Part shown: piece after piece, positions 1,937-63,970 of the stretch
Layout of the letters: the number at the start of each line of letters is the position of its first letter
Numbering within the stretch: position 1 is the stretch's first letter
DNA from: Escherichia phage vB_EcoS_ESCO40
Direction: 5' to 3' (one strand)
DNA: 64,000 bases
Sequence record: NC_106514.1
The notes under the pieces: model-generated
Told to the model about the DNA's origin: nothing
The model's database searches: none
What the model saw: only the letters and a program-made list of their open reading frames with translations
Position numbers and translations under genes: made by a program

Positions 1937-2329
1937 ATGGAACAAGTATATTGGCGTCAGATTGATCCTAGTTTGGTGAAGCGTGCGGAGAAGCTGCTAC
2001 AACGTTGGTTGGGGGTAAGACAAGCCTCCTTCACTTTTCCAGAGCAGCAAATAGATGATCCCTGTGTTGGTGTTTTCCTATCAGGCTACGCTAGGGAATG
2101 GGAATTGGATTGGAATGAATTGTCTGCTATGGGTTTAATTGTTGCACTAAATTTCTCTTTGTTCCATCCACGTGGTTTGGCCATATGTCGTGTGCCTGGT
2201 GACGGTTGTTCGCCCCATCTTTTACAGGTGGAAGATGATATTTGGGAGTACACTCCAGGTATTCTCAAAGAAGCTAAAGAACAATTAAATCGTGTTGGAA
2301 TCTATGTTCCGGGACTAAATGATGAATAA
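1937..2329 (+). CDS. hypothetical protein, paralog of adjacent gene
   Basis: 130-aa ORF; tandem duplicate of the 1499-1927 product by shared motif pattern. Confidence 0.55.
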   Translation: MEQVYWRQIDPSLVKRAEKLLQRWLGVRQASFTFPEQQIDDPCVGVFLSGYAREWELDWNELSAMGLIVALNFSLFHPRGLAICRVPGDGCSPHLLQVEDDIWEYTPGILKEAKEQLNRVGIYVPGLNDE

Positions 2330-2513
2330 AGAATATTGGGTATGTTATGGTAAAATTAAAAAGTGGAATAAGGGTCAACTTTCCGCTAAACAAGTAAAAT
2401 TTATGGCGAGATATTTGACTGATCCCACTTTCGATATTAAAAAGTTAAGTAGCTCAAACCGCGCTATTATACTTAAATTTGCTAATACTATTCGTGGTCT
2501 TTTTTATGATTAA
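2319..2513 (+). CDS. hypothetical protein (64 aa)
   Basis: ORF overlapping upstream stop; followed by a hairpin. Confidence 0.4.
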   Translation: MMNKEYWVCYGKIKKWNKGQLSAKQVKFMARYLTDPTFDIKKLSSSNRAIILKFANTIRGLFYD

Positions 2514-2521
2514 TCCGTATA

Positions 2522-2548
2522 ACCGAGTCATTTTGGCTCGGTTTTCTC
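2522..2548 (+). terminator. putative intrinsic terminator
   Basis: Stem AACCGAG/CTCGGTT with 9-nt loop followed by TTCTCT. Confidence 0.4.
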
Positions 2549-2589
2549 TGTACTCAAAGACACTGATAGCACCATCCGGAAAATTTTAC

Positions 2590-2618
2590 TTGCATGATAC
2601 TCAAAATCTTGATATAAT
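2590..2618 (+). promoter_or_regulatory. T5-type early promoter (family member P1)
   Basis: TTGCAT-17 bp-TATAAT followed by conserved initial transcribed sequence ATTTATATTGAATTGAGAGA. Confidence 0.7.
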
Positions 2619-3118
2619 ATTTATATTGAATTGAGAGACATTAGTAAAAATTGGTTTTACTAATTTTTCTTGTTTACAATCCGCGATACGGAACAGTTAG
2701 GCTGCCCCATTAAGGGTTGTTTTAACTGTTACGTGTTAGTTTTTAAACAAATAGTTAATAGAATACTTAGCGATCTGCGTCCCATAGGAACCCTGGTAAG
2801 GCCTCGAAGCAACCTAGTATGAGGTGGTTGTGAAGTGAGATGGGAGGAGTGAAAAACTACCGAGACGTGATTCTGTAAGTTATATTGCATCTAGTATGAG
2901 CTAGTATATGAAGCATTAGGTGAGCAAATCTGGCTTAGCGGCCATCCTCAAGGATTTGTGCGGTATAATGAGGCAGCAGCGCAGCGTGAAAGTGGAAGTT
3001 GCCACCCCACTTCAGTATTTGCGATTAATTTGTTGAGAAATTGACAGTAACAGTTGTTCTATTCTTTCTGAATAGTCCTAAAGAAAACTTATTTCATTTC
3101 CAACACAGGAGTATTGTT

Positions 3119-5908
3119 GTGTTTTCAATCCTACAAGGTCATGCAGGATTTCATCGCGATTTAGCCACAGGCAATTGGCGAGAAGTTAAAGCAGAAGATT
3201 ATCTTTTTGCTAAAAGATTTTCCTCAAAGCATCCTGAAGGTAAACCAGCTTCAATGCCCTTCAAGTTTGATGTAATTGACGAAGTTGATCCTCAAACCCT
3301 AGTAGAAATGCTCCCTCTTATGAGACGTTTAACGTCTGACCCTCATATCGTTGCGGTACGAGGTCGATGTCTTGCACCTAAAAATAATGTGCGGCGTAAG
3401 AAGGGCAACTTTAATGTATCTAATCCAAGTCATATAATCGCAATGGATGTGGATGGTATTGTAGATACAGGAGGTTGTAACAAGTTTGATCTTGTTGGCG
3501 TGGCTCGACATATTATTAGGATGTTAAATAGTATTAGTGAGGATATGTTTCCTCTTGATGCAGGGTTTATCGCTCATGCATCGTCTTCGGCTGGACTAAA
3601 ACCAGGTATCCGAATGCACTTAATACTAGAATCTAATGTTAAAGTTACACAGGGTCAGATCAAGTTCTTATTTACATCTATCAACGAAAGTAGTAGACAA
3701 AAGTATGGCTTTGATATTGCCGACTTAGCTTATTACTCTTCCGTACAGCTCCACTATTTCGCAGATCCTTTATTTATTGATGGTATAGTCGATCCGTTTA
3801 AAGCGGAGGGTGCTTCACGTCTGGTATTTGTTAAAGGCTCAAAAGTAAATTTACCTAATAATCTAGTTGACTATGAAACAACTAGAGGAGAGTTTAAAGA
3901 GGAATTCTACTCTTTACTCGATCAAATTAAAGGTAAAAAAGCTGCCTCTGATAAAGTAGAGGAAACTATCAGTGAGCTAGAAGAGGCTGATGATGGGGTA
4001 TACTTACGTATTATTCCAAAGCTATATCACCGAGCGTTAGAGGATGGGGTAGATTTTGGTTGGCTAGAAAAAGAAATCCGCCCAGCTTTATCAGAATATA
4101 TTGCAACTAAAGATAATAGCCGTAATATTCAGGATTATTTCAATAACGGACGGAAACAGGCATTAAAAGCCTTTGTGAATAACTCTAAGCGTGAGATCCC
4201 TGAAGTATTAAAAGGTATCCCCCTTAAAAAGCTAGAAACTAATTCACTAGAGACTGACAACTTCTTGAAATTAAATACTGTACCACCAGAAGGCTATATG
4301 ACTTTTGTAAAAGCAAGTCTAGGCACAGGTAAAACCACGGCGGTTGTGCGTTGGTTAGATTCAGGGGTTATTAAAGGTAATTTCTTAGCAATTACCAATA
4401 CTAGAGCACTGGTATCTTCAAATGCTAAGAAATTTAGTGCAGGACAATATGATAAGTCTGTAGATATGCTTAATTTTAAGCGTGGTGCTATTGACCGTAT
4501 GTCCACAACTATTCACTCTTTGCATAAATTCAAGAGTTTTATTGGTCAAATTGACGCAATCTTTATCGATGAATGTGATGCAGTAATGAATGACCTATTA
4601 TTCGCTCCGGTTGTTAAGCAACGTCGCGAGTGTATTCAGGTTCTTCGTGATATTCTTGCAACTGCAAAAATAATTATATTATCTGATGGGGATATTAGTG
4701 CAGAAACAATTGAAGCATATGGTTCTTTGATTGAGTTCGATAAACCAGTTGCATTTTACAATCACCACCGTAAAATGCTGTCAAAAGCTCATGCTTATGA
4801 GTTCCCTGATGAATCCAGTATTTGGGTTGCACTTCAGACTTCTCTAGAGATGGGTGAGAAATCTATTCTAGTATCTGATTGTGGCCCGGATGAGCTGAAT
4901 GAGAAAGGTATGGCACTGCGTCGTAATACGGGTGCGTTAGTTAAGGAAATCCATTCAAACTCTACCTCAGATGTGGATATTCGACGTATTCTGGATTACA
5001 CAACTAATGAACTAATTGATCAACAAATTGATTGCTTATTATGTAGTCCATCCGTAACGAGTGGTGTTGACTTTAACTATTTTGATAACGTATTTGTTAT
5101 TACTAGAACTAGTAATCAAGCGCCAAACATGCGTTTTCAAGCAATCAGGCGCGACCGTGGTGCTCAGAATATCTATTATTTTATTGATAAATCCACTAGT
5201 GGGTTCTCTGCTGGTTCTGAACAATATAATATTGATGAAGGTTGGCTGGAGTTAGCACAGCAGTTATATGCGCGTCGCAGGGAGCTAGAATCTAGGAACT
5301 ATACTAGTACTTTACGTTATTACTTGCTTGATCAAGGTGCAACTATTGATATTTTCAGCGAAAGCTGGGGAACTATTGAAGGTGCTGGTAAAGAGTACAC
5401 AGAAGAGCGAATCAAAGCTATTCTGCATTCAACTCCAGATTATTGTGCTCCACGTCATGCGGATGCGTATGAAGCTAAACTACTTCTTGTTCGCTATTAT
5501 CATCTTGAGTCTATTAAAGATGTAACAGTTGAGCATGTTGAACAATATATCAAAGATAAGCCGAATGATCGAGCTGCATTCTTCCATAAGATGCACGAGA
5601 TGTTCTGGGAAGATATTAAGAAGTGTTCAAATGTGACCATTAAACCATTCATAGAAGCTCTGAAAGGTAAGAAGAAGGACTTCTTCCTTAAAACAGGTCA
5701 GAGTGCTAACCCAAAATATGCTAGAATGTATCTTGGTATGATGGGTATTGGTAAAGATATGAACACGGAGAATATCGTAGACTGGTACAGAACCTATTGT
5801 AAAATCGAGTGTATGCCAATTCCTTATAAGTTCATGACTGACGAGGAAAAACATATGCACGATGAAGCAATGTCAGAGCTAGGTGCTAGAAATGACAGTG
5901 AAGAATAA
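3119..5908 (+). CDS. SF2 helicase-domain protein, putative replication initiator / origin-binding-like
   Basis: Walker A GTGKTT and DExD-like IFIDECD in central region; ORF open from 3041 (TTG); GTG at 3119 follows AGGAG by 7 nt; start uncertain. Confidence 0.6.
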   Translation: MFSILQGHAGFHRDLATGNWREVKAEDYLFAKRFSSKHPEGKPASMPFKFDVIDEVDPQTLVEMLPLMRRLTSDPHIVAVRGRCLAPKNNVRRKKGNFNVSNPSHIIAMDVDGIVDTGGCNKFDLVGVARHIIRMLNSISEDMFPLDAGFIAHASSSAGLKPGIRMHLILESNVKVTQGQIKFLFTSINESSRQKYGFDIADLAYYSSVQLHYFADPLFIDGIVDPFKAEGASRLVFVKGSKVNLPNNLVDYETTRGEFKEEFYSLLDQIKGKKAASDKVEETISELEEADDGVYLRIIPKLYHRALEDGVDFGWLEKEIRPALSEYIATKDNSRNIQDYFNNGRKQALKAFVNNSKREIPEVLKGIPLKKLETNSLETDNFLKLNTVPPEGYMTFVKASLGTGKTTAVVRWLDSGVIKGNFLAITNTRALVSSNAKKFSAGQYDKSVDMLNFKRGAIDRMSTTIHSLHKFKSFIGQIDAIFIDECDAVMNDLLFAPVVKQRRECIQVLRDILATAKIIILSDGDISAETIEAYGSLIEFDKPVAFYNHHRKMLSKAHAYEFPDESSIWVALQTSLEMGEKSILVSDCGPDELNEKGMALRRNTGALVKEIHSNSTSDVDIRRILDYTTNELIDQQIDCLLCSPSVTSGVDFNYFDNVFVITRTSNQAPNMRFQAIRRDRGAQNIYYFIDKSTSGFSAGSEQYNIDEGWLELAQQLYARRRELESRNYTSTLRYYLLDQGATIDIFSESWGTIEGAGKEYTEERIKAILHSTPDYCAPRHADAYEAKLLLVRYYHLESIKDVTVEHVEQYIKDKPNDRAAFFHKMHEMFWEDIKKCSNVTIKPFIEALKGKKKDFFLKTGQSANPKYARMYLGMMGIGKDMNTENIVDWYRTYCKIECMPIPYKFMTDEEKHMHDEAMSELGARNDSEE

Positions 5909-6125
5909 AAAATGGGAAACAAGGAAGTTTCCAGTAAAAGAACGTAAGGTTCCTGTTTATGATACTTCGGAAAAGCTATGTAGGGTGGTACCACACAGAT
6001 TAGCTGGTATCCCTAACATATCCGAGTGGTTACTTAAACAACGGAGGACTAGCGTATCCCTCCGCATAGGGTTTGAGTTAGATAAAGTATATGCTGAACT
6101 TTCTTCTTTGCTCAAAGAATCATAA
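5883..6125 (+). CDS. hypothetical protein (80 aa)
   Basis: ORF overlapping the end of the upstream gene; no motif recognised. Confidence 0.35.
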   Translation: MLEMTVKNKKWETRKFPVKERKVPVYDTSEKLCRVVPHRLAGIPNISEWLLKQRRTSVSLRIGFELDKVYAELSSLLKES

Positions 6126-6133
6126 AAAATTAT

Positions 6134-6162
6134 TTGCTTTCAGGAAAAATTTTCTGTATAAT
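6134..6162 (+). promoter_or_regulatory. T5-type early promoter (P2)
   Basis: TTGCTT-17 bp-TATAAT then AGATTCATAAATTTGAGAGAGGAG. Confidence 0.75.
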
Positions 6163-8635: not shown

Positions 8636-9599
8636 TGTAAAAGGCTTTATTAGGCGTTGTCAAGAAGCATATTATCAAGGCATGTCTTTAATCTCTGATG
8701 AGGAGTATGATTGCCTGGTAAAACGCTTCCCGTTAGAAGAAGAGATCGGGCCTAAAGGTGATATTCCACATCTGTATCGTATGTATTCTTTACAGAAAGT
8801 TTATTATAATCGTGGAGATAAACCCCCATTTAACCCCTTAGGTCAGGTAGAAACTGATAAGTTAGATGGTTGTGCAATTTCTCTGTTATATATTAACGGC
8901 GAATTTGTCCAAGCATTAACCCGTGGTAATGGTATTCTAGGGAATGATGTCACAAGCAACGTAAGATTGCTGAACATTCCTAAAAAGATTTCCCAAAAAG
9001 TACCTACTCAAATCACTGGTGAAGTTCTAATTACAAAAGAAGTAGAAAATAAACGTAACTTTGCCTCTGGTGCTATTAACCTCAAAGATAGTGATGATTT
9101 CGTACAACGCATTGGAGAAGGCGGTTTAATCTTTGTTGCTTACGGTATCCAATGTTCTGCTGAATCTGTAGGTATTACAGAAGCATACTTAAAAGATATG
9201 CTTTGGCTAGAGAATGAGAACTTCTTAACAGTTGTTAATGTGCGTTCCTTCTTTAAATGGATTCCGACGGACGGTAAAGTTGTTCGTATTAATGACAACA
9301 ACAAATTCTTCCGTGAAGGCTGGACTAATAAATTCCCTCGTGGAGCATTCGCTATTAAAGAGGATGAAGAAGGCGAAATTACAACTCTTACTAAAGTTGA
9401 ATGGCAGGTAGGGGCTTCTGGTAAAGTAACTCCAGTTGGTTATTTCGAACCGGTAATTATTGATGATGCTACAATTGTTAAGGCGACTCTTAATAACGTT
9501 GATTATATTAACTCTCTCGATCTAGAGATCGGTTGCCAGATTCGAGTGATTCGTGCTGGTGGTGTAATCCCGTGCATAGTAGAGCGAGTATACGATTAA
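8625..9599 (+). CDS. NAD-dependent DNA ligase, N-terminal fragment (Ia-like, adenylation and OB regions)
   Basis: KLDG adenylation motif (KxDG); SDEEYD Ia-like segment; ends where a Zn-finger would follow in an intact LigA. Confidence 0.8.
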   Translation: MMNNVKGFIRRCQEAYYQGMSLISDEEYDCLVKRFPLEEEIGPKGDIPHLYRMYSLQKVYYNRGDKPPFNPLGQVETDKLDGCAISLLYINGEFVQALTRGNGILGNDVTSNVRLLNIPKKISQKVPTQITGEVLITKEVENKRNFASGAINLKDSDDFVQRIGEGGLIFVAYGIQCSAESVGITEAYLKDMLWLENENFLTVVNVRSFFKWIPTDGKVVRINDNNKFFREGWTNKFPRGAFAIKEDEEGEITTLTKVEWQVGASGKVTPVGYFEPVIIDDATIVKATLNNVDYINSLDLEIGCQIRVIRAGGVIPCIVERVYD

Positions 9600-9649
9600 T
9601 ACATAACCCTTTGCTACCCATCTACCATATCGGAATTATAAAGTGGTTA

Positions 9650-9678
9650 TTGACATTTTCGCCGCTTAGGTATATACT
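9650..9678 (+). promoter_or_regulatory. sigma70 consensus-like promoter in the ligase gap
   Basis: TTGACA-17 bp-TATACT. Confidence 0.6.
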
Positions 9679-9742
9679 ATTATCATTCAGTTGAGGGATA
9701 GAAAGTTATGGCGAGGGTAAGCAAAGTTAGTTAAAATTGTAG

Positions 9743-9771
9743 TTGCTAAATGCTTAAATACTTGCTATAAT
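9743..9771 (+). promoter_or_regulatory. T5-type early promoter (P5)
   Basis: TTGCTA-17 bp-TATAAT then ATTTATATAAATTGATAAGGAAG. Confidence 0.75.
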
Positions 9772-9801
9772 ATTTATATAAATTGATAAGGAAGAAATTT
9801 G

Positions 9802-10581
9802 ATGAAAATCGAAATTCCAACACAATGTCCCTCTTGTGGTTCTAAGCTAGATCTTGTCAACGGACAATTATTCTGTCGTAATAAGTCCAACTGTCCAGCG
9901 CAATCAAGTAAGTTAATTGAGAACTTCTGTACAAAAATGAAGTTAAAGGGCTTTGGCCCGAAAACTATTGAGAAGCTGGAGCTGACGAAGATTTCAGAAC
10001 TATTTTACCTAACCGAAGAAGATTTGGTTAGAGCCGTGGGTAGCAAGGTTGCCGCTAAGTTAATTAGCGAATTAAATACTAAAGTTCGCGGAGACATTGA
10101 CTTTGGTTCAGTTCTCGGTTCTTTAGGAATCCCTCTAATTGGAGAGGTTGCAGCAAAGAAATTGTCCCAAAATTGCACCAGTTTTCAAGATGTGAGAGCT
10201 GATGGCAAAGCTGGAGAAAATTATAAAGCCTGGCTAAATTCCCCACAAGGCAAGGATGTTATCGAATTACCGTGGAAATTCACAACTGGTATTAAAGGTG
10301 CTAAAGCTGGGGTCATCATTACTGATGGTCTAGTAGCCCAGCCAAATGGAATCACGGTGTGTATTACCGGGTCTTTGCAAGATTTTGCAAATAGAACGGA
10401 TGCAACAAATTATTTAGAAGGTCTAGGGTATACTGTTAAAAAATCAGTTACCAAAGACGTTAAATACCTAATCTGTGAGGATGAATCGAAGCGTTCTTCC
10501 TCATCTTATAAGAAAGCCGAAACGAATGGGATAGAAATCCTGTCGATTAAAGAACTATTGGAGAAAAATAATAATGTCTAA
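9802..10581 (+). CDS. NAD-dependent DNA ligase, C-terminal fragment (Zn finger, HhH, BRCT-like)
   Basis: CPSCGS...CRNKSNC zinc finger at N-terminus; ITGSL BRCT-like segment; TAAGGAAG RBS 8 nt upstream. Confidence 0.75.
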   Translation: MKIEIPTQCPSCGSKLDLVNGQLFCRNKSNCPAQSSKLIENFCTKMKLKGFGPKTIEKLELTKISELFYLTEEDLVRAVGSKVAAKLISELNTKVRGDIDFGSVLGSLGIPLIGEVAAKKLSQNCTSFQDVRADGKAGENYKAWLNSPQGKDVIELPWKFTTGIKGAKAGVIITDGLVAQPNGITVCITGSLQDFANRTDATNYLEGLGYTVKKSVTKDVKYLICEDESKRSSSSYKKAETNGIEILSIKELLEKNNNV

Positions 10582-55885: not shown

Positions 55886-57559
55886 TTACTGTACAAAAAA
55901 TTTGCCGTTCTTAAAGTCGATCAAAGTGCGCTGGCCGTTCGCATAGGTAATAACATGCGTTTGCGTCCAGCTCGACGCGCCAACGTTATAGCCCATGTCC
56001 AGACTACCAGATACGCCAGCGGTATAAACGCCGCCGTAAATGCTGGCGGTGTGAGTGTGCCCCGTGTTTAATTTGCCCAATTTCTTAAATTGCTTCGGAT
56101 TGCCACGGCTCCCGTTAATGCCATTGTGACCGTGTACACCGCACTCAATGCCTGCAATCTTGAAAGATTGATCAGTGGTCAGGAAAATAGCGTTAAATTC
56201 ACAACCTGCAACCTTGCGCAGCGCATAATCCAGCACGTTGAAAGTATCGTCTTTTTCTGCAATAGCTCCGTAAATCGCAGCATTAAGGCGGTGATATAGT
56301 TCCGCGTTGGCTGGATCGTCTTTAATGTTAGCATTACGATCATCAAGCCAACGGGATAACGCCAGATCATGGTTAGATTCAACAATGATCGTTTGAGCAA
56401 AATCGCGCTCCATTGATTCCAGTACGCGCCCGGTATCGATAAGGTCATCCAGAACTTTATCACGTCCGGCGGCGTATTGTTTTGCTAGGAATACACCAGA
56501 AGCGCGGTTGTGATGATTGCGCGATGTAAAATCATGCACGTCATGCACGAATTGATATTTTGGTTTAAGAATATCAACAAGCCCGTAGGTATCACCATGC
56601 CCCCACGACGCAGCGGCGCACTCCTCATCCAATTTTTCGGCGTGTATGTCGCCATATTGCAAGCCTAAAACATGATCGGACGTTTCAAAGCATCCGGCGG
56701 GAGTGGCGCAAATATTCAAATCGTAAAACATGCCGCTTTCGTCCATCGTTTCAAGCTGGCGAACAAAAAATTCACCGTCCTCGTCAAACTCAACAATCAG
56801 CGCACCAAAATTATGTAGCGCCTCGGCCTTTTGCCCTGCCTTTTGCTGAATGTAGTTTTTGAGCGTTGCCGTTCCGGTCGAGTACATACGGCGCACTACT
56901 TCACCTTTTAAAGCTGGGACGCTTTCGGCGGTGATTTTAGCCGCTCCAATTGCCAGACCTTCCAGATTAAGCGCGGTTGCAGTTTCAGCGAATCCAGAAA
57001 GCGGATAATCTGCAGTTGGTAACACGTTAATCTCAGCCATGAAAGCAAAACGGCGATTATTCAAAAACACGTTTTTATTGCAGATATATTTATCAAACGC
57101 AGAATCATATTTGATTCCGTCCGCGCCCTCACCATTTTGAAAACCGTTTTTATTATAAATATACTTGCTAACCAGCAAATCAGCGCCAATAAATTGGGCA
57201 TATTGTTCAAGCGAGGATAAAAAGTTTTTATGCGGGAAAGTATTATTCTGAATCGATGTAATAATAAAGCGTTTACCTTGTTTTACTTCCCAGCTTTCCA
57301 CCGTGCTAGAAATAACTCCAGCGGCTTCAGGGCGGTCATCGTTTTTAATAGCTTTTACAGTTTTTGCCGCTTTTGGTTTCGCTGGTTTATTTGCTTCCAG
57401 CCAATCACAAATAGCGGTGGAATGCTTTGGAGTATCGTAAACCATTTTAGAAATATCGTCACATACTTCCAATTTAGTGGCGCGCAGACGTTTACCATAG
57501 AAATTAAAGTCAGCGGCCATTTTCAGGATAACGGTTTGTTTTTCTGCGGAAATAATCAT
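55886..57559 (-). CDS. A1: pre-early protein A1-like (metallophosphoesterase-type)
   Basis: 557 aa; calcineurin-like motifs GDIHAE, GHGD, NHD, GHTH in the C-terminal half; position and size match T5 A1. Confidence 0.6.
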   Translation of the reverse strand: MIISAEKQTVILKMAADFNFYGKRLRATKLEVCDDISKMVYDTPKHSTAICDWLEANKPAKPKAAKTVKAIKNDDRPEAAGVISSTVESWEVKQGKRFIITSIQNNTFPHKNFLSSLEQYAQFIGADLLVSKYIYNKNGFQNGEGADGIKYDSAFDKYICNKNVFLNNRRFAFMAEINVLPTADYPLSGFAETATALNLEGLAIGAAKITAESVPALKGEVVRRMYSTGTATLKNYIQQKAGQKAEALHNFGALIVEFDEDGEFFVRQLETMDESGMFYDLNICATPAGCFETSDHVLGLQYGDIHAEKLDEECAAASWGHGDTYGLVDILKPKYQFVHDVHDFTSRNHHNRASGVFLAKQYAAGRDKVLDDLIDTGRVLESMERDFAQTIIVESNHDLALSRWLDDRNANIKDDPANAELYHRLNAAIYGAIAEKDDTFNVLDYALRKVAGCEFNAIFLTTDQSFKIAGIECGVHGHNGINGSRGNPKQFKKLGKLNTGHTHTASIYGGVYTAGVSGSLDMGYNVGASSWTQTHVITYANGQRTLIDFKNGKFFVQ

Positions 57560-57655
57560 AGTAATAAAACTCCATTAAAGGGATTAAAAACGTTTGTTAT
57601 TGGCAATATTGCCAGATATAACGCCGCAAATGAGTGGCGTTATAATTTGCAACAT

Positions 57656-57853
57656 TTAACTAATAGGCATTAGGCTGGCACTAACCCCACAAGCAACGGC
57701 GGCGATTAAGCAAAGTAAACCCAACCGCCTTGCTAAATTAGCCTTGCGTTTAAAATAATATGAATCCAGATCATTTTGAAAATAAGCAAACAATAATGAG
57801 GCGGCCATAATAAATAAGCCTAGAATGAGGGATTCAGTAGGGTAAAAGATCAT
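57656..57853 (-). CDS. small membrane protein (65 aa)
   Basis: Two hydrophobic segments (LILGLFIMAASLLFAYF and LGLLCLIAAVACGVSASLM). Confidence 0.5.
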   Translation of the reverse strand: MIFYPTESLILGLFIMAASLLFAYFQNDLDSYYFKRKANLARRLGLLCLIAAVACGVSASLMPIS

Positions 57854-57909
57854 TTTAAAACTCCAGTCAAAGGGAAATTATAGTGGGGAATAATCCCCAC
57901 TAATTAAAT

Positions 57910-58326
57910 TTATTCGCCAGCGGCTTGTTTTACTTCATCGGCAACGCCTAACAGTTGCGCCACGGCGTCCAGCGTTTCCAATTTTGCACTTTCCAGCGAG
58001 GCCAGATCATCGGCGTCTTTGATAATACCGGAATCGATCGCATGTTTTGCAATAACGCGCACATAATGCGCTTTACGAATGGAACTACCGCCGCCAACCT
58101 TGCGAGGTTTATCGCTTTTCTGATACGCTTTCGCGCTGGTCAATTTTGAGCGAACAGACACGGGAGAAGTCGCGCCAACTGTTTTAGCAATCTCTTTCAG
58201 GCCGTCGCTGTTGGCGAACTCTAATCCATTTTCATTGATTAGCTGTTGATACATAGTAACAGCCTGTTGGGTGTTTTCTTCATTCCATGCGAATTTTGCA
58301 GATTTTTCGGTTTTAACGTTAGCCAT
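57910..58326 (-). CDS. hypothetical protein (138 aa)
   Basis: ORF in the leftward pre-early operon; no motif recognised. Confidence 0.5.
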   Translation of the reverse strand: MANVKTEKSAKFAWNEENTQQAVTMYQQLINENGLEFANSDGLKEIAKTVGATSPVSVRSKLTSAKAYQKSDKPRKVGGGSSIRKAHYVRVIAKHAIDSGIIKDADDLASLESAKLETLDAVAQLLGVADEVKQAAGE

Positions 58327-59725: not shown

Positions 59726-59754
59726 AGCCAACTAACTATTTCCTGAGTTATAAT
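59726..59754 (+). promoter_or_regulatory. promoter-like element with T5-type downstream leader (P10)
   Basis: TATAAT followed by ATAAGCATAAATTAATGAGAT matching the conserved leader of the early promoters; weak -35 (AGCCAA). Confidence 0.45.
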
Positions 59755-59805
59755 ATAAGCATAAATTAATGAGATAATAATAATTATAAGAAATCGTAAC
59801 CAATA

Positions 59806-59897
59806 GAAATAATAACTATAAAAATAATAACTATAAAAATAATAACTATAAAAATAATAACTATAAAAATAATAACTATAAAAATAATAACTATAAG
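59806..59897. repeat. 15-bp tandem repeat, about 6 copies
   Basis: AATAACTATAAAAAT repeated head to tail. Confidence 0.9.
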
Positions 59898-59934
59898 AAA
59901 CTATCGGCCTAAGTGAGAACCACTATCATTTAAG

Positions 59935-59943
59935 TTATCCACA
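59935..59943 (+). promoter_or_regulatory. DnaA box (perfect 9-mer)
   Basis: TTATCCACA. Confidence 0.5.
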
Positions 59944-59994
59944 AGTTTATTAACAGCACTTTTTGACTTGACACGATAGGCGGCGATATAAGGG

Positions 59995-60044
59995 CTTATC
60001 CACAGACTTATCCACAGGTTATCCTACTGTATAAATATACAGGG
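59995..60044 (+). promoter_or_regulatory. composite element A: two tandem DnaA boxes plus a LexA-box-like palindrome
   Basis: TTATCCACA at 59996-60004 and 60008-60016, then TACTGTATAAATATACAGGG (CTGT-N8-ACAG) at 60025-60044. Confidence 0.55.
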
Positions 60045-60308
60045 TAGAAAGGTAGTGTTAACAACTGCAATCAATTTTAAGCGGCCTAAATCGCTTTCTA
60101 ACGAGCTAAATGCAGTGGGGTAATATTAAAGTAAAGCCTTCACCCGCCGCCCTGGTGGCTTCGCCGTGTTTTGCTCTTTACTATACCGCTGCGCGGTTAG
60201 CATAAAACTAGGCGTTAGGCAAGGAAAATAAAAAGGTAAAATAATATTTGCCCCTAGAAAGAAAATACCCTTATCATTCACTCACCGATTAACGAGGGAG
60301 TCCAACAA

Positions 60309-61286
60309 ATGAGGCTGTATAAACCAGATAATGCCACCGTCTTAAAAGGTGCGCTGCGCAACCTGCTGGACGGTAGCAGAACAACCAGCATTAAGCACTT
60401 TGTTAACAAGGCCGAAGATATTCACCAAAATTTTTTTGATGATTTCGATGCCTATGATATGAGTAGTTTTTTGCAATTGTATAAGCAAGGGGCAACGCTT
60501 GTTTTGTATAATCGAGATAATCACCTGCTTACTAGTAGGGGGCCGGATACTGATTTTATAATTGTAAAAGGTAGCACAGTAAAAGCCTATGACACTGGGG
60601 CGGGCTTAGAAGTTTTTTCAATAGAAAACTATGAAGCCAACCCCAATGATCTTTATGACGTTGAAAACTTTCTTGATTCATTTTGGCGTTATTTATCAGT
60701 TGGCTGGAATCGGTCAATTGGTGACGGTTATCGTCTGGCGGCTGTAATGGCTTTTGATGATGATGGCAATTTTTTGCTACCGTCGGAAATATACCCTTAC
60801 GTATATGATGGGGATATAGAAAGCGCGGGCTTTTCTTTCTGGAAGGAGGAAGATCAGCCTATTGACAATATAGAAAAACATGCGGTAAATTCTAACGCTC
60901 AAACCATTGAAAACAAAGGAAAAAATACCATGACCAAGATCGCTAATATCGTTGCCGCTAATAAGTCTGCCGTTGTAAATGCTGCAAAATTGGAAGCGGG
61001 TAAAATTGCACTGACTCAAATCACGAAAGTAGCGGCTAAAAAAGCGCCGTTTATGATTAAAGGCTATATTGATACGCCTATCGGTCGGGTAGTGATTGCT
61101 AACCTGCTTAGCGTGGTGGTTGACCAGTATGCCCCTAGCAACCAGAAAGCGAAAGCGGTAGCGGGTGCAGCTATGGAAGCGGCTATGTTAGAAATGGTGC
61201 AAAGTTTTAACATTGCTGAAATGATTGACGAAATGGTGAAAGGTATTGATATTTCTACTTTTACCGTTAACACCGAAAACGAGTAA
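60309..61286 (+). CDS. hypothetical protein (325 aa)
   Basis: GAGGGAG RBS 9 nt upstream; no motif recognised; first gene of the rightward cassette. Confidence 0.6.
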   Translation: MRLYKPDNATVLKGALRNLLDGSRTTSIKHFVNKAEDIHQNFFDDFDAYDMSSFLQLYKQGATLVLYNRDNHLLTSRGPDTDFIIVKGSTVKAYDTGAGLEVFSIENYEANPNDLYDVENFLDSFWRYLSVGWNRSIGDGYRLAAVMAFDDDGNFLLPSEIYPYVYDGDIESAGFSFWKEEDQPIDNIEKHAVNSNAQTIENKGKNTMTKIANIVAANKSAVVNAAKLEAGKIALTQITKVAAKKAPFMIKGYIDTPIGRVVIANLLSVVVDQYAPSNQKAKAVAGAAMEAAMLEMVQSFNIAEMIDEMVKGIDISTFTVNTENE

Positions 61287-61313
61287 TAGTTAACCTAGTG
61301 TAAAGTTTTGTAA

Positions 61314-61340
61314 AGGTCGCCATAATCGGCGGCCTTTTTT
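61314..61340 (+). terminator. intrinsic terminator
   Basis: GGTCGCC/GGCGGCC hairpin (one G-U pair) followed by TTTTTT. Confidence 0.6.
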
Positions 61341-61348
61341 GTTATAAT
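61340..61348 (+). promoter_or_regulatory. extended -10 promoter element
   Basis: TGTTATAAT (TGn-TATAAT) directly after the terminator T-tract. Confidence 0.4.
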
Positions 61349-61405
61349 GCCTTTACACCAAAACGGTGGATTGAAAATTTTCCCAAAAAATTTTGGAGGC
61401 TTAAA

Positions 61406-61636
61406 ATGGTTGCTTACTCTTCTTCTGACGCTCTTTTCACTGGAAAAGGCTGGGTATCAAATCGCTGGATCATTCAAGAAATGGTGCAAGAATATGGCAT
61501 TGCTAAAACTTACACTACCATTCAGGCGCTTTATGATAATGATCAAATCGATCAGCAAACGGCGGGCTTTTTGCTGGATACCCTAAAAGCGGAACATTGT
61601 ACTAAAAAACAAGCCGCAAAAATTATTTTAATGTAA
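61406..61636 (+). CDS. hypothetical protein (76 aa)
   Basis: GGAGG RBS 7 nt before ATG. Confidence 0.55.
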   Translation: MVAYSSSDALFTGKGWVSNRWIIQEMVQEYGIAKTYTTIQALYDNDQIDQQTAGFLLDTLKAEHCTKKQAAKIILM

Positions 61637-61682
61637 TTAATAACGGGGCGTTATTTTCGCCCCGCTAACTAGGAGAATGAAA

Positions 61683-61832
61683 ATGGTTATTTTTCGAGCT
61701 ATTCTGGCGGGTATCTTGGGCGCTATTTTATCACTTTTTGCCATAGCTTTCGGCGTTCACGCGGTTATTGTTGGCGCGGGTATCGCTGTATTTTCTTATC
61801 TGCTGGGCTGCATGACTAGTAAAGGAGAATAA
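61683..61832 (+). CDS. small membrane protein (49 aa)
   Basis: AGGAG 7 nt upstream; almost entirely hydrophobic (two predicted helices); not in the ORF track because it is under 60 aa. Confidence 0.45.
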   Translation: MVIFRAILAGILGAILSLFAIAFGVHAVIVGAGIAVFSYLLGCMTSKGE

Positions 61833-61834
61833 AA

Positions 61835-62047
61835 ATGATTCGTAACGTTTCCCTTGCTCGTTCAAAGGGTTTTAGGCTGGTGGACGTTAACACGTTCGAG
61901 CGGGAAGACTGTAAAATCGAATATGTAGCACGGAATAAAAACGCCTTCCGTGTTACAGAAAAGAAATTCGATAAGCGCGGCAACGTGATCGCTGAAACGG
62001 TTAAATATTTTGCCACCTTTTACGCTGCGTTTCGTGGGGTACTATGA
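61835..62047 (+). CDS. hypothetical protein (70 aa)
   Basis: AAGGAGAA RBS; Lys/Arg-rich. Confidence 0.55.
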   Translation: MIRNVSLARSKGFRLVDVNTFEREDCKIEYVARNKNAFRVTEKKFDKRGNVIAETVKYFATFYAAFRGVL

Positions 62048-62178
62048 AAAACGTTATTATTATTATTATCCTTGCAATGGTTGGCGGTTTTACCGCCACC
62101 TTGTTTAAGAATGACCCCCTTTTACTGGGGGTTTTTATGCTTTTATCAGGCTATCTGATCGGGAGGATATGCAAATGA
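62044..62178 (+). CDS. small membrane protein (44 aa)
   Basis: Start overlaps upstream stop (ATGA); hydrophobic VIIIIILAMVGGFTATLF and LLLGVFMLLSGYLIG; under 60 aa. Confidence 0.4.
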   Translation: MKNVIIIIILAMVGGFTATLFKNDPLLLGVFMLLSGYLIGRICK

Positions 62179-62519
62179 TCATTTACGAGGGCAATCGTTT
62201 TGTTACTAATTGCCGCCCAGCATTATTAGCAAACTATTTAAACCAGCTTTCGCCAGCTTATAAGGGCGTTATTAATATTTATGAAGGCAAGGCGCACTAT
62301 AAAATCAATGCGGTCGTTGCCCGTGAACTAGCGTTTCAATTTTTGACCTTTGCATCTTGCGACGTTCAGGTTATGGGTGAGGCATTAATCGCAGAAAATG
62401 AAGATGATTTTATTAATATTTTCCGTAAGGTGTGCACCGAGCGCCTGATAATGAAAGGCGCATATATTCAATCCACGGCTGATAGTATTGAAACAGCGTT
62501 TCGAAAGGTGGCGCAATGA
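62169..62519 (+). CDS. hypothetical protein (116 aa)
   Basis: GGGAGG RBS upstream; no motif recognised. Confidence 0.55.
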   Translation: MQMIIYEGNRFVTNCRPALLANYLNQLSPAYKGVINIYEGKAHYKINAVVARELAFQFLTFASCDVQVMGEALIAENEDDFINIFRKVCTERLIMKGAYIQSTADSIETAFRKVAQ

Positions 62520-62611
62520 GATTATATATTTTCGCGGGCAATGTTGAGGCTGCAAATGATTCCGCTGGTGGCGATAACGTTCGCCACTACTGGCAAAAAT
62601 ATATTTACTAG
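62516..62611 (+). CDS. hypothetical small protein (31 aa)
   Basis: Start overlaps upstream stop (ATGA), fills an otherwise empty 100-bp gap. Confidence 0.3.
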   Translation: MRLYIFAGNVEAANDSAGGDNVRHYWQKYIY

Positions 62612-62619
62612 GGGTTACT

Positions 62620-62814
62620 ATGAGCAATAAAATTATTGTGACCAAAACCACCACAACGGTTGACGTTTTTTATGTGCCCGATACGCCGGAAAACCGGCAA
62701 GCGGTCGAACGTGGTGAATATGATAGCGTAATTTATGACGCTGATGGTTATTATCAGCATTTGGTCGATTCCTATGGGGAAGAGGAGAAGATCACGCATC
62801 AATTACCAGACTGA
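62620..62814 (+). CDS. small acidic protein (64 aa)
   Basis: About 14 Asp/Glu against about 5 Lys/Arg; last gene before a terminator. Confidence 0.55.
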   Translation: MSNKIIVTKTTTTVDVFYVPDTPENRQAVERGEYDSVIYDADGYYQHLVDSYGEEEKITHQLPD

Positions 62815-62820
62815 CAACAA

Positions 62821-62844
62821 ACGGGGAGCAGATCCCCGTTTTTC
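62821..62844 (+). terminator. intrinsic terminator
   Basis: ACGGGGA-GCAGA-TCCCCGT hairpin followed by TTTTCAC. Confidence 0.7.
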
Positions 62845-62954
62845 ACACCTGCAACCAGATAACCCCTTGTTTTAGTATCCCCGCCAAAATTAAACGCGTT
62901 AGAATGCGATCTAGGACGTTTTAAGCCTATATTAGAATTATTCACTGCATAGGA

Positions 62955-63064
62955 ATACTGTATAAATATACAGTAGAATAACCTGGGGATAAGTCTGTGG
63001 ATAACGCTTCAAAATGGCTAGGATTCTGTCAAGGCAAATCGTGCTGTTGATAAGTCTGTGGATA
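62955..63064 (-). promoter_or_regulatory. composite element B: LexA-box-like palindrome plus two DnaA boxes, inverted relative to element A
   Basis: TACTGTATAAATATACAGTA at 62955-62974 (one mismatch to the SOS-box consensus as recalled); TGTGGATAA at 62995-63003 and 63056-63064. Confidence 0.55.
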
Positions 63065-63093
63065 ACCTAAATAACAGTGTTTCTCACTTCCAT

Positions 63094-63290
63094 TCTTAAA
63101 TGAGAATCATTATCATTCGCATTCCACTATCTAACCGATAATCATTTCCTTTCTTAAATGAGAATCATTTCACTTTTTGAATAGTTCTCATTCTCTTTCT
63201 TAAATGAGAATCAATCTCATTTCATTTTCTAAATGCGAATTATTATCATTCTCATTCCGCTTTTTAAATGATAATGATTCTCATTATCAT
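63094..63290. repeat. array of about 5 AT-rich direct repeats (TCTTAAATGAGAATCAT-type)
   Basis: Copies at about 63094, 63153, 63198, 63227 and 63262; the last contains GATAATGATTCTCATTATC, 17 of 19 matches to the Fur-box consensus as recalled. Confidence 0.7.
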
Positions 63291-63328
63291 TCGCATTCAG
63301 GCGAGCAGGGCAATTGCCCTGCGCTTTT

Positions 63329-63929
63329 GTGCAAATCCGACAATTGCTCCAAGGGTTACGTGCTGGCGTGTATGTGCAAATCCGACAATTTTTGGTAGTG
63401 TGCAAATCCGACCCGAAAAATTTTTATAGTGTGCGAATCCGACAATGAATTTTCCTAAAAACTCCAGCAATCACGAACTGCGTTCGAATCCTGTGGGATA
63501 TGTGCAAATCCGACACGGTTTTTCTAGGATTAAGATGTGCGAATCCGATGAAGTTTTTGTGAGTTCGATTGGAAGGTGTGTGATTGTATGGGTTTGTGGA
63601 GAAGGTGAGAGAGCGAGAGAAATTTGGTGGGCTAGAAGGATGTGGTCGCAGGATTGGTGTGGAGCACCTGGTTTGCGGGGATTTTGGGGAAGAGTTGAGA
63701 TAATTTGGGGAAATTTGAGATAGGTGCAGAAAAAGTAAAATTTTATTAGCAAAATGGGGCAAAATAGCTTGACAAGTGAAAATTCTTGTGGCTCTAAAAA
63801 CTCAGGCAATCATGGGCCTTCGGCCCGAAATAATGCTGCTATTTTCAGGAGAGTAAGAGTTCCTAAAAACTTAGGCGTTTGTGCAAATCCGACCATAAAT
63901 TTCTAGAAACACAATGTGCGAATCCGACA
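63329..63929 (+). repeat. eight dispersed direct copies of a 14-bp motif GTGC(A/G)AATCCGA(C/T)
   Basis: Copies at 63329, 63374, 63400, 63431, 63502, 63537, 63881 and 63916, all in the same orientation, each followed within 12 nt by a T-run. Confidence 0.85.
63575..63730 (+). other. G+T-rich strand-asymmetric tract
   Basis: About 150 nt almost devoid of C on the plus strand (GGTGTGTGATTGTATGGGTTTGTGGAGAAGGTGAGAGAGCGAGAG...). Confidence 0.7.
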
Positions 63930-63970
63930 GTAATTTCTGGAAATGTGTTTTCAAAAAATGTCTTCTAGAA

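Follow-up and report, generated by a model that had tools for sequence, protein, structure and literature searches.

The closest described counterparts of the locus analysed here are two inverted repeats of phage T5, IRC-spacer-IRD (6022-6152) and IRD'-spacer-IRC' (9332-9462), of 131 bp each (Davison 2020, bioRxiv 10.1101/866236). They carry eight DnaA/DnaA* boxes arranged in pairs 3 bp apart, flank a variable operon, and have both been proposed to take part in the injection stop signal by way of membrane-bound DnaA, with the first DnaA box credited to a 1987 study (bioRxiv 10.1101/866236). The BF23 genome paper describes the DnaA idea as experimentally untested, and in the T5 RefSeq record, positions 9140-10149 are annotated as 'injection stop signal (iss)'. 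Repeats, DnaA boxes and variable operon have thus all been described before. Here, we describe the corresponding repeats in a 64,000-nucleotide stretch of Escherichia phage vB_EcoS_ESCO40 (NC_106514.1), which is the window referred to throughout, and show that each of them holds, next to its DnaA boxes, a palindrome that is an excellent predicted match to the LexA box and is conserved across T5-like phages.

Inverted repeats at the borders of the pre-early operon

The segment 59400-63400 of the window matches 530 phage records, the best of which are BF23-like Tequintavirus genomes with ~90-92% identity (BF23 itself, 92%) and fall inside annotated left terminal repeats. Judged by these matches, the final 10 kb of the window belongs to the terminal-repeat, first-step-transfer (FST) DNA of a BF23/T5-like phage. 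The original prediction had described two inverted composite elements here, each made of DnaA boxes and a LexA-type palindrome, and comparison with T5 shows these to be the inner halves of the IRC-spacer-IRD and IRD'-spacer-IRC' repeats of T5-type FST DNA. The pair measures ~131 bp, lies in the terminal repeat, flanks an operon and carries paired DnaA boxes, and its right-hand member, arm B, is located just left of the shear point and inside the iss, which covers the homolog of the arm B palindrome (box B). A coordinate offset of 78 puts the published repeat end exactly at the outer edge of each palindrome; the palindrome had therefore already been seen as part of IRD/IRD'. The terms 'LexA' and 'SOS' are absent from the comparative study that defined these repeats (bioRxiv 10.1101/866236).

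A repeat search of the window returned a 132-nt inverted repeat (59911-60042 versus 62958-63089) with 78% complementarity. Aligned with gaps, the two arms of the window and those of T5 and Klebsiella phage Sugarland show homology that runs ~100 nt inward of the palindrome, up to a hairpin, and each arm is therefore ~260 bp long, with the palindrome mid-arm instead of at the tip. Both arms are conserved and non-coding, and they share one order: two DnaA-box pairs, then the LexA box about one helical turn further on, then a conserved block of ~100 bp and finally a terminator-like hairpin. The members of each DnaA-box pair are 3 bp apart, the spacing from pair to pair is 61 bp in both arms, and a third TTATCC follows the second pair of arm A at 60019-60024. 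The exact sequence TTATCCACA occurs five times in the 64 kb, always within the arms, against 0.70 expected (five were reached in 0 of 100 shuffles), and the pattern CTGT-N8-ACAG occurs four times in the window against 0.62 expected. Comparison across the family (see below) shows each arm to be a dense, conserved array of predicted recognition sequences for two host proteins, accompanied by further conserved blocks.

The arms resemble the published T5 repeats, also known as Repeat Regions 2 and 3, in their terminal-repeat position, the ~131-bp outer part, the paired DnaA/DnaA* boxes and the variable rightward operon that they bracket. Whereas the inner end has been published only as a repeat or palindrome, with LexA unmentioned, the present analysis adds the further inward homology and traces the composite to phage genera of Proteus and Vibrio. 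The DnaA boxes and palindromes lie exactly where the original prediction had placed them, and the arms do bracket the rightward open reading frames (ORFs) at 60309-62814. The predicted inverted repeat is likewise real, but it is larger than was thought, with two DnaA-box pairs per arm instead of two boxes. Arm A had further been placed between a promoter-like site near 59749 and the first gene; this position stands, but the homolog of a validated promoter, P11, is found downstream of the element.

Several features of the arms were noted in passing. The inner block (60045-60175 and 62815-62955) follows the consensus CT..AACGC.TTCTAACG ... TAyTAAAGTAArG ahead of the hairpin, which is kept from coliphages to Klebsiella phages and leaves recognisable traces in Vibrio and Proteus phages. 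A DnaA-like TTATTCACT lies ~10 nt inward of box B, so that DnaA-type sequence is present on both sides of this box, and it is kept in Tequintavirus B arms. The AAA at the palindrome centre is oriented alike in both arms of the window, so the 18-mers at 60025-60042 and 62956-62973 are direct repeats; in other phages, the centre reads AAA or TTT in either arm, and its orientation appears unconstrained. Adjoining arm A and its DnaA boxes, at 59803-59907, are six tandem copies of the AT-rich 15-mer ATAAAAATAATAACT, which have the look of an origin-type unwinding element.

A predicted LexA box conserved in both arms

The palindrome reads CTGTATA-WW-TATACAG, and both of its copies are excellent predicted LexA-box matches. 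We scored them with a Lewis-type heterology index (HI) derived from a set of 28 E. coli LexA sites; its absolute values are off the published scale. Box B has an HI of 0.61, lower than all 28 sites of the index table, and the palindrome of arm A (box A) has one of 3.33, comparable to sulA and recA. Elsewhere in the window the lowest HI is 8.7, and among random 64-kb sequences of matching composition the minimum averages 9.5. The two boxes thus combine the 16-bp palindrome CTGT-N8-ACAG with the low HI of a LexA operator.

A further mark of LexA operators, overlap with a promoter or transcription start, was found at neither box. T5 P11 is a pre-early promoter that is active in ordinary infection and was validated by primer extension (Klimuk 2020). 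Its homolog is virtually invariant among the window, T5 and BF23, and its -35 element starts 200 bp downstream of the end of box A, while box B lies ~110 bp past the operon terminator (62820-62845). Promoter-like hexamers over the boxes are conserved neither between T5 and BF23-type arms nor between arms A and B. Two specific candidates for a conserved box promoter were rejected: TTAACA-16-TATATT (60061..60034, minus strand) is present in BF23-type arms and absent in T5, and nothing in arm A corresponds to the leftward TTTATA-18-AATAAT found at box B.

The palindrome is present twice, at the two operon borders, in T5, BF23, DT57C and Sugarland. The composite layout, in which a DnaA box, 3 nt, a second DnaA box and ~9-11 nt precede CTGTAT-N4-ATACAG, is kept in Sugarland and in more distant relatives. 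These include Proteus phage 1 and the Vibrio phages 70E34-1a, PG07 and Gary, which were reached only through their A1 protein (31-44% identical to A1 of the window), as in the PG07 example cTTATCCACAcagTTATCCACAgcttatacCACTGTATAAATAAACAGTA. Vibrio phage VPT02, found by a weak DNA match, shows the identical layout.

We then surveyed loci of 13-21 kb selected on the A1 protein alone, with the box not a criterion, and scanned them for boxes at HI < 6.5. All 31 T5-like loci with enough upstream DNA contain at least one box, and 28 of the 31 contain at least two, located about 2 to 4.4 kb and 4.1 to 8.3 kb upstream of A1 (-2 to -4.4 kb and -4.1 to -8.3 kb); no box was found elsewhere in the surveyed loci at this threshold. 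Likewise, none of 40 contigs with only an N-terminally truncated A1-like gene carries any box, and no T5-type arms or DnaA-box pairs were found in A1-like contigs from hosts probably outside the gammaproteobacteria. The distance from box to box varies between 1.6 and 4.1 kb across the surveyed loci; thus the content between the arms changes and the boxes stay. The arms themselves occupy a fixed syntenic position in 533 records. Had the palindromes been missing from all relatives that retain the cassette, the original prediction would have been refuted; in the relatives compared, the opposite was seen, as the palindromes are kept everywhere and it is the cassette content that changes. Every lineage of T5-like phages compared, namely phages of E. 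coli, Salmonella, Klebsiella and Proteus and several genera of Vibrio phages, has the palindrome adjoining its DnaA-box pair. Taken together, the comparison shows that throughout the T5-like family, Demerecviridae, the rightward pre-early operon is bordered on each side by a predicted LexA box.

A conservation profile of 76 unique arms, anchored on the box, shows stronger conservation in the LexA box than in any other part of either arm. The 14 outer positions of the box are at least 90% conserved, whereas the central dinucleotide is ~60% conserved; it reads AA or TT and may face either way with respect to the DnaA boxes, in line with the known tolerance of LexA. The DnaA boxes are 70-90% conserved, and the remainder of the arms is lower. 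The variants that do occur in the box (CTGG, CTGTAC, ACACAG, AAACAG and ATCCAG) are also found among the E. coli sites of the index table. Such a profile is as expected if a symmetric dimer with LexA specificity had imposed it. The LexA-box match claimed in the original prediction is therefore borne out by both the index and the conservation, and we consider that host LexA probably binds the palindromes.

Like the canonical E. coli SOS boxes of recA, sulA, umuDC and tisB, the phage boxes are 20-mer palindromes of the form TACTGTAT-N4-ATACAGTA, with an HI equal to or below that of the strongest chromosomal sites of the 28-site table. They differ from these SOS boxes in that they overlap no validated or conserved promoter, are carried by a strictly virulent phage, and invariably occur together with a DnaA-box pair at a distance of about one helical turn. 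Host LexA sites are also carried by temperate phages and other mobile elements, such as CTXphi, GIL01 and coliphage 186 (tum). The T5-like case shares with them a mobile element that bears sites for the host LexA; in those systems, however, LexA controls lysis-lysogeny or antirepressor promoters with LexA cleavage as the signal, whereas the T5-like boxes are found without lysogeny or a promoter context.

A pattern scan of IMG/VR yielded 119 further loci, many of them divergent and with an A1 homolog. In nine metagenomic phage contigs of IMG/VR, of ~7-46 kb (L036, L040, L050, L051, L067, L074, L114, L117 and L122), a DnaA-box pair directly abuts a LexA-type box, as in TTATCCACAggTTATCCACAaCTGTATAGACATACAG, and in several of them the box is flanked by such pairs left and right. 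Across the examined stretch of these nine contigs, neither an A1 nor an A2 gene was detected. In Vibrio phage 70E34-1a (8939-8990) and Proteus phage 1 (7911-7975), a ACGCATACGC...TCTATT motif common to both phages comes after the box nearer to A2, and the Vibrio phage additionally has TTGGCACgcttaTTGCT, which fits the sigma-54 -24/-12 consensus.

In Sugarland, the operon between the arms (2070-6022, compared with 60025-62975 in the window) is inverted and both boxes are in place. The Sugarland homolog of T5.011 (37% identity, E = 3e-43; 3972-4937) accordingly lies between the same two boxes on the opposite strand. Homologous recombination between the 260-bp inverted arms could account for this inversion, which in turn accounts for the 'module-like' look of the cassette.

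Possible roles of the arms

The position of the arms relative to the known landmarks of first-step transfer bears on their function. The published T5 shear point (9618) maps to ~63270, which is ~300 bp past box B, and arm B lies ~200-315 bp inside it. A hairpin followed by GCGC aligns with the annotated T5 'major DNA single-chain interruption' (9748/9749), which puts the minus-strand position equivalent to the 7.9% nick at ~63324/63325, ~260-370 bp from arm B. As quoted in later T5 literature, an older report described a second first-step band at about 5846 (~5.8 kb), and this band places a second pause near arm A. On the strength of the shear-point and nick geometry and of this second band, we favour an architectural role for the arms, in which they would hold, pause or insulate the partly injected DNA.

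More specifically, our tentative proposal, which we find plausible, is that LexA and DnaA assemble on both arms and form an architectural complex in the injection-stop region. A host LexA dimer and host DnaA would bind each arm as soon as it enters the cell, and the resulting complex would have an architectural effect on the DNA injected so far. Holding or pausing this DNA at the two sites that mark the ends of first-step fragments is one option; others are a bridge between the arms or a block to read-through into the part of the genome still outside the cell. The phage would thereby exploit LexA binding and not LexA cleavage, with no SOS switch of the operon. T5 plates on recA1 cloning strains, where LexA cannot be cleaved, and LexA cleavage would therefore not be essential. 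That LexA has a role in the injection stop itself is possible but doubtful. A stronger version, in which LexA, acting with DnaA, supplies the trans-acting component still missing from accounts of the stop, the box holds the entering DNA and removal of LexA helps to time second-step transfer, is improbable; here, LexA would be removed by A1/A2, or by RecA-stimulated cleavage after A1-driven breakdown of the host DNA.

Several points weigh against an architectural LexA-DnaA complex. We know of no architectural role of this kind for LexA, and what the arms do is read from their sequence. The binding of a protein to DNA that has entered the cell does not alone explain why entry stops, and a phage protein that recognises the same palindrome is a candidate binder. 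Three T5-like loci of the survey have no good arm-A box, nor do the 'Type 4' phages of Davison (bioRxiv 10.1101/866236), so that two boxes are not obligatory. Finally, as to priority, the original prediction held that LexA sites are undescribed in T5-like pre-early DNA, and indeed we found none in the searchable literature, nor the LexA-box reading, its Demerecviridae-wide conservation or the fixed coupling to DnaA pairs; key older T5 papers lie outside that literature, which leaves priority uncertain.

The best-surviving alternative is that the palindrome is the target of a phage protein, either dimeric A2 or an A1-A2 complex that cuts or releases DNA, and that the match to LexA is incidental or competitive. 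A2 is a double-stranded-DNA-binding dimer that is required, like A1, for second-step transfer, and palindromes of the region (PalD and others) have been suggested as cleavage sites (bioRxiv 10.1101/866236). A2 is also kept in the same lineages as the palindrome, with 41-42% identity to its Proteus and Vibrio phage homologs, and its AlphaFold model (predicted local distance difference test score, pLDDT, 82) is all-helical with faint helix-turn-helix-like fold matches, the best Foldseek match being no better than E = 0.86. We nevertheless consider this explanation unlikely, since it would be a notable coincidence for a phage-protein site to fall on the exact host LexA consensus, flanking TA included, and to vary only where the E. 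coli LexA sites of the index vary. Moreover, A2 has no detectable similarity to the LexA N-terminal domain or to solved DNA-binding proteins; considered as a possible LexA-like winged-helix protein, it has no match in the Pfam copy searched (its precomputed tag is PF26822) and no sequence match in the PDB.

A second alternative places a weak promoter, occluded by LexA and DnaA, in each arm, from which a short transcript of ~120 nt would run inward to the arm hairpin. The proposed -10 element lies in the box (TATAAA or TATATT) and the -35 in a DnaA box (TTATCC), with a 16-nt spacer that follows from the distance between the DnaA and LexA boxes, conserved in all lineages, and a hairpin does end both arms inward at a similar distance. 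The -35 is, however, poor (3/6 matches), and the A-run on the inward side of the hairpin in most lineages suits termination of outward, not inward, transcripts. The inner block also lacks a conserved RNA structure, as its alifold scores of -0.58 (forward) and -3.03 (reverse) fall within the range of column shuffles (-1.14 +/- 1.17), and no Rfam family was found at gathering score, the three weak matches being outside the arms. Such a promoter is distinctly unlikely.

In the original prediction, LexA was proposed to repress or gate the 2.9-kb cassette up to the onset of SOS induction. In favour of this view, very strong LexA binding is predicted for the boxes, they bracket the operon, and RecA activation is plausible in T5 infection, where host DNA is rapidly degraded. 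The operon promoter, however, stands well clear of box A and is active from the start of normal infection, with the terminator-like hairpin (60153-60175) between the two; box B comes after the operon terminator, and no conserved promoter overlaps either box. In addition, the Sugarland operon is inverted with both boxes unmoved, and the plating of T5 on recA1 strains speaks against a need for LexA cleavage. We regard gating as very unlikely, and this part of the prediction did not hold up.

The arms might also be an oriC-like, DnaA-dependent replication or unwinding element with LexA as a modulator. Like oriC-type origins, they have clustered, precisely spaced DnaA boxes (four per arm) beside AT-rich repeats, six copies of the 15-mer being found directly next to arm A. 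They differ from such origins in that they lie in the first-injected DNA, form a duplicated inverted pair and embed a LexA box, and arm B has no comparable adjoining AT-rich tandem array. The T5 origins were mapped near the genome centre, away from the arms, and the replication genes lie outside first-step DNA (bioRxiv 10.1101/866236), which makes an origin function highly improbable. Least credible of all is the suggestion, also made in the original prediction, that a mobile gene cassette has the arms as its terminal inverted repeats: they are an inverted pair with variable gene content in between, and the cassette is inverted in Sugarland, but the syntenic position of the arms does not change in any relative, the homology reaches beyond the palindrome in both directions, no scanned cassette protein matches a transposase or recombinase family, and ordinary homologous recombination between 260-bp inverted repeats suffices for both inversion and gene shuffling.

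Surrounding features and meaning for T5-like phages

The features of the region are collected in Table 1. A1 and A2 together span 55886-58326 on the minus strand, and the inverted repeats lie on their 5' side. Beyond arm B, five copies of a TTCTTAAATGAGAATCATT-type repeat, TCAyTTCCnTTCTTAAATGAGAATCATT, occur at 63084-63300, and at least nine copies of TGTGC(A/G)AATCCGAC at 63328-63934; between them stands the perfect hairpin GCAGGGCAATTGCCCTGC (63305-63322), followed by GCGC. Two further candidates for LexA-controlled products were rejected, namely a small RNA in the inner arm block, which has no conserved fold and no Rfam family at gathering score, and a toxin peptide encoded by the minus-strand ORF 62799-62945, which has 48 aa and a GTG start, is not hydrophobic and shows no obvious ribosome-binding site.

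Table 1. Coordinates of the inverted-repeat arms and adjoining features in the window
Feature	Position	Strand	Remarks
Protein A1	55886-57559	minus	557-aa ORF
Protein A2	57910-58326	minus	138-aa ORF
Arm A, outer part (published IRC-spacer-IRD)	59911..60044	+	Inverted repeat; maps to T5 6022-6152; ends at palindrome
DnaA box pair 1	59935..59955	+	TTATCCACA, agt, TTATTAACA; boxes 59935-59943 and 59947-59955; outer pair of arm A
DnaA box pair 2	59996..60016	+	TTATCCACA, gac, TTATCCACA; boxes 59996-60004 and 60008-60016
LexA-box-like palindrome A (box A)	60025..60044	.	TACTGTATAAATATACAGGG; HI 3.33; kept in relatives
Arm A, inner conserved block	60045..60175	+	CCTAAATCGCTTTCTAACG ... GGTAATATTAAAGTAAAG; ends in hairpin and T-run 60153-60175; from both-arm alignment of three phages
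P11 homolog, cassette promoter	60248..60277	+	TTGCCC-18-TATCAT; homolog of T5 pre-early promoter
Rightward pre-early operon	60309..62814	+	Homologous to T5.011-T5.017; synteny with BF23 and T5; first gene DUF7566
Operon intrinsic terminator	62820..62845	+	CGGGGAgcagaTCCCCG then TTTTT; BF23 and T5 annotations
Arm B, inner conserved block	62846..62955	-	Includes DnaA-like TTATTCACT at 62938-62946
LexA-box-like palindrome B (box B)	62956..62975	.	TACTGTATAAATATACAGTA; HI 0.61; inside iss feature of T5 record
Arm B, outer part (published IRD'-spacer-IRC')	62956..63089	-	Inverted repeat; maps to T5 9332-9462
DnaA box pair 3	62984..63004	-	TGGGGATAA, gtc, TGTGGATAA; boxes 62984-62992 (degenerate) and 62996-63004 (consensus)
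DnaA box pair 4	63045..63065	-	TGTTGATAA, gtc, TGTGGATAA; boxes 63045-63053 (degenerate) and 63057-63065 (consensus)
Remaining injection-stop repeat region	63084..63934	+	Repeats, hairpin and nick homolog

How T5 injection stops after 8% of the genome, and how it restarts, has been an open question since the 1960s, and the sole current proposal for the stop is the DnaA boxes (Davison 2020). The conservation of a predicted LexA site beside these boxes, in coliphages and as far away as Vibrio phages, points to LexA as a second defined host protein that may take part in the injection pause, and makes the injection-stop problem directly testable through host lexA genetics and point mutations in the boxes. 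If true, a strictly virulent phage would be employing LexA away from promoters, which is uncommon for this protein. Should LexA fail to bind, the conservation would instead mark the palindrome as the key recognition site for a phage protein such as A2, which would tell as much about the working of the stop signal.

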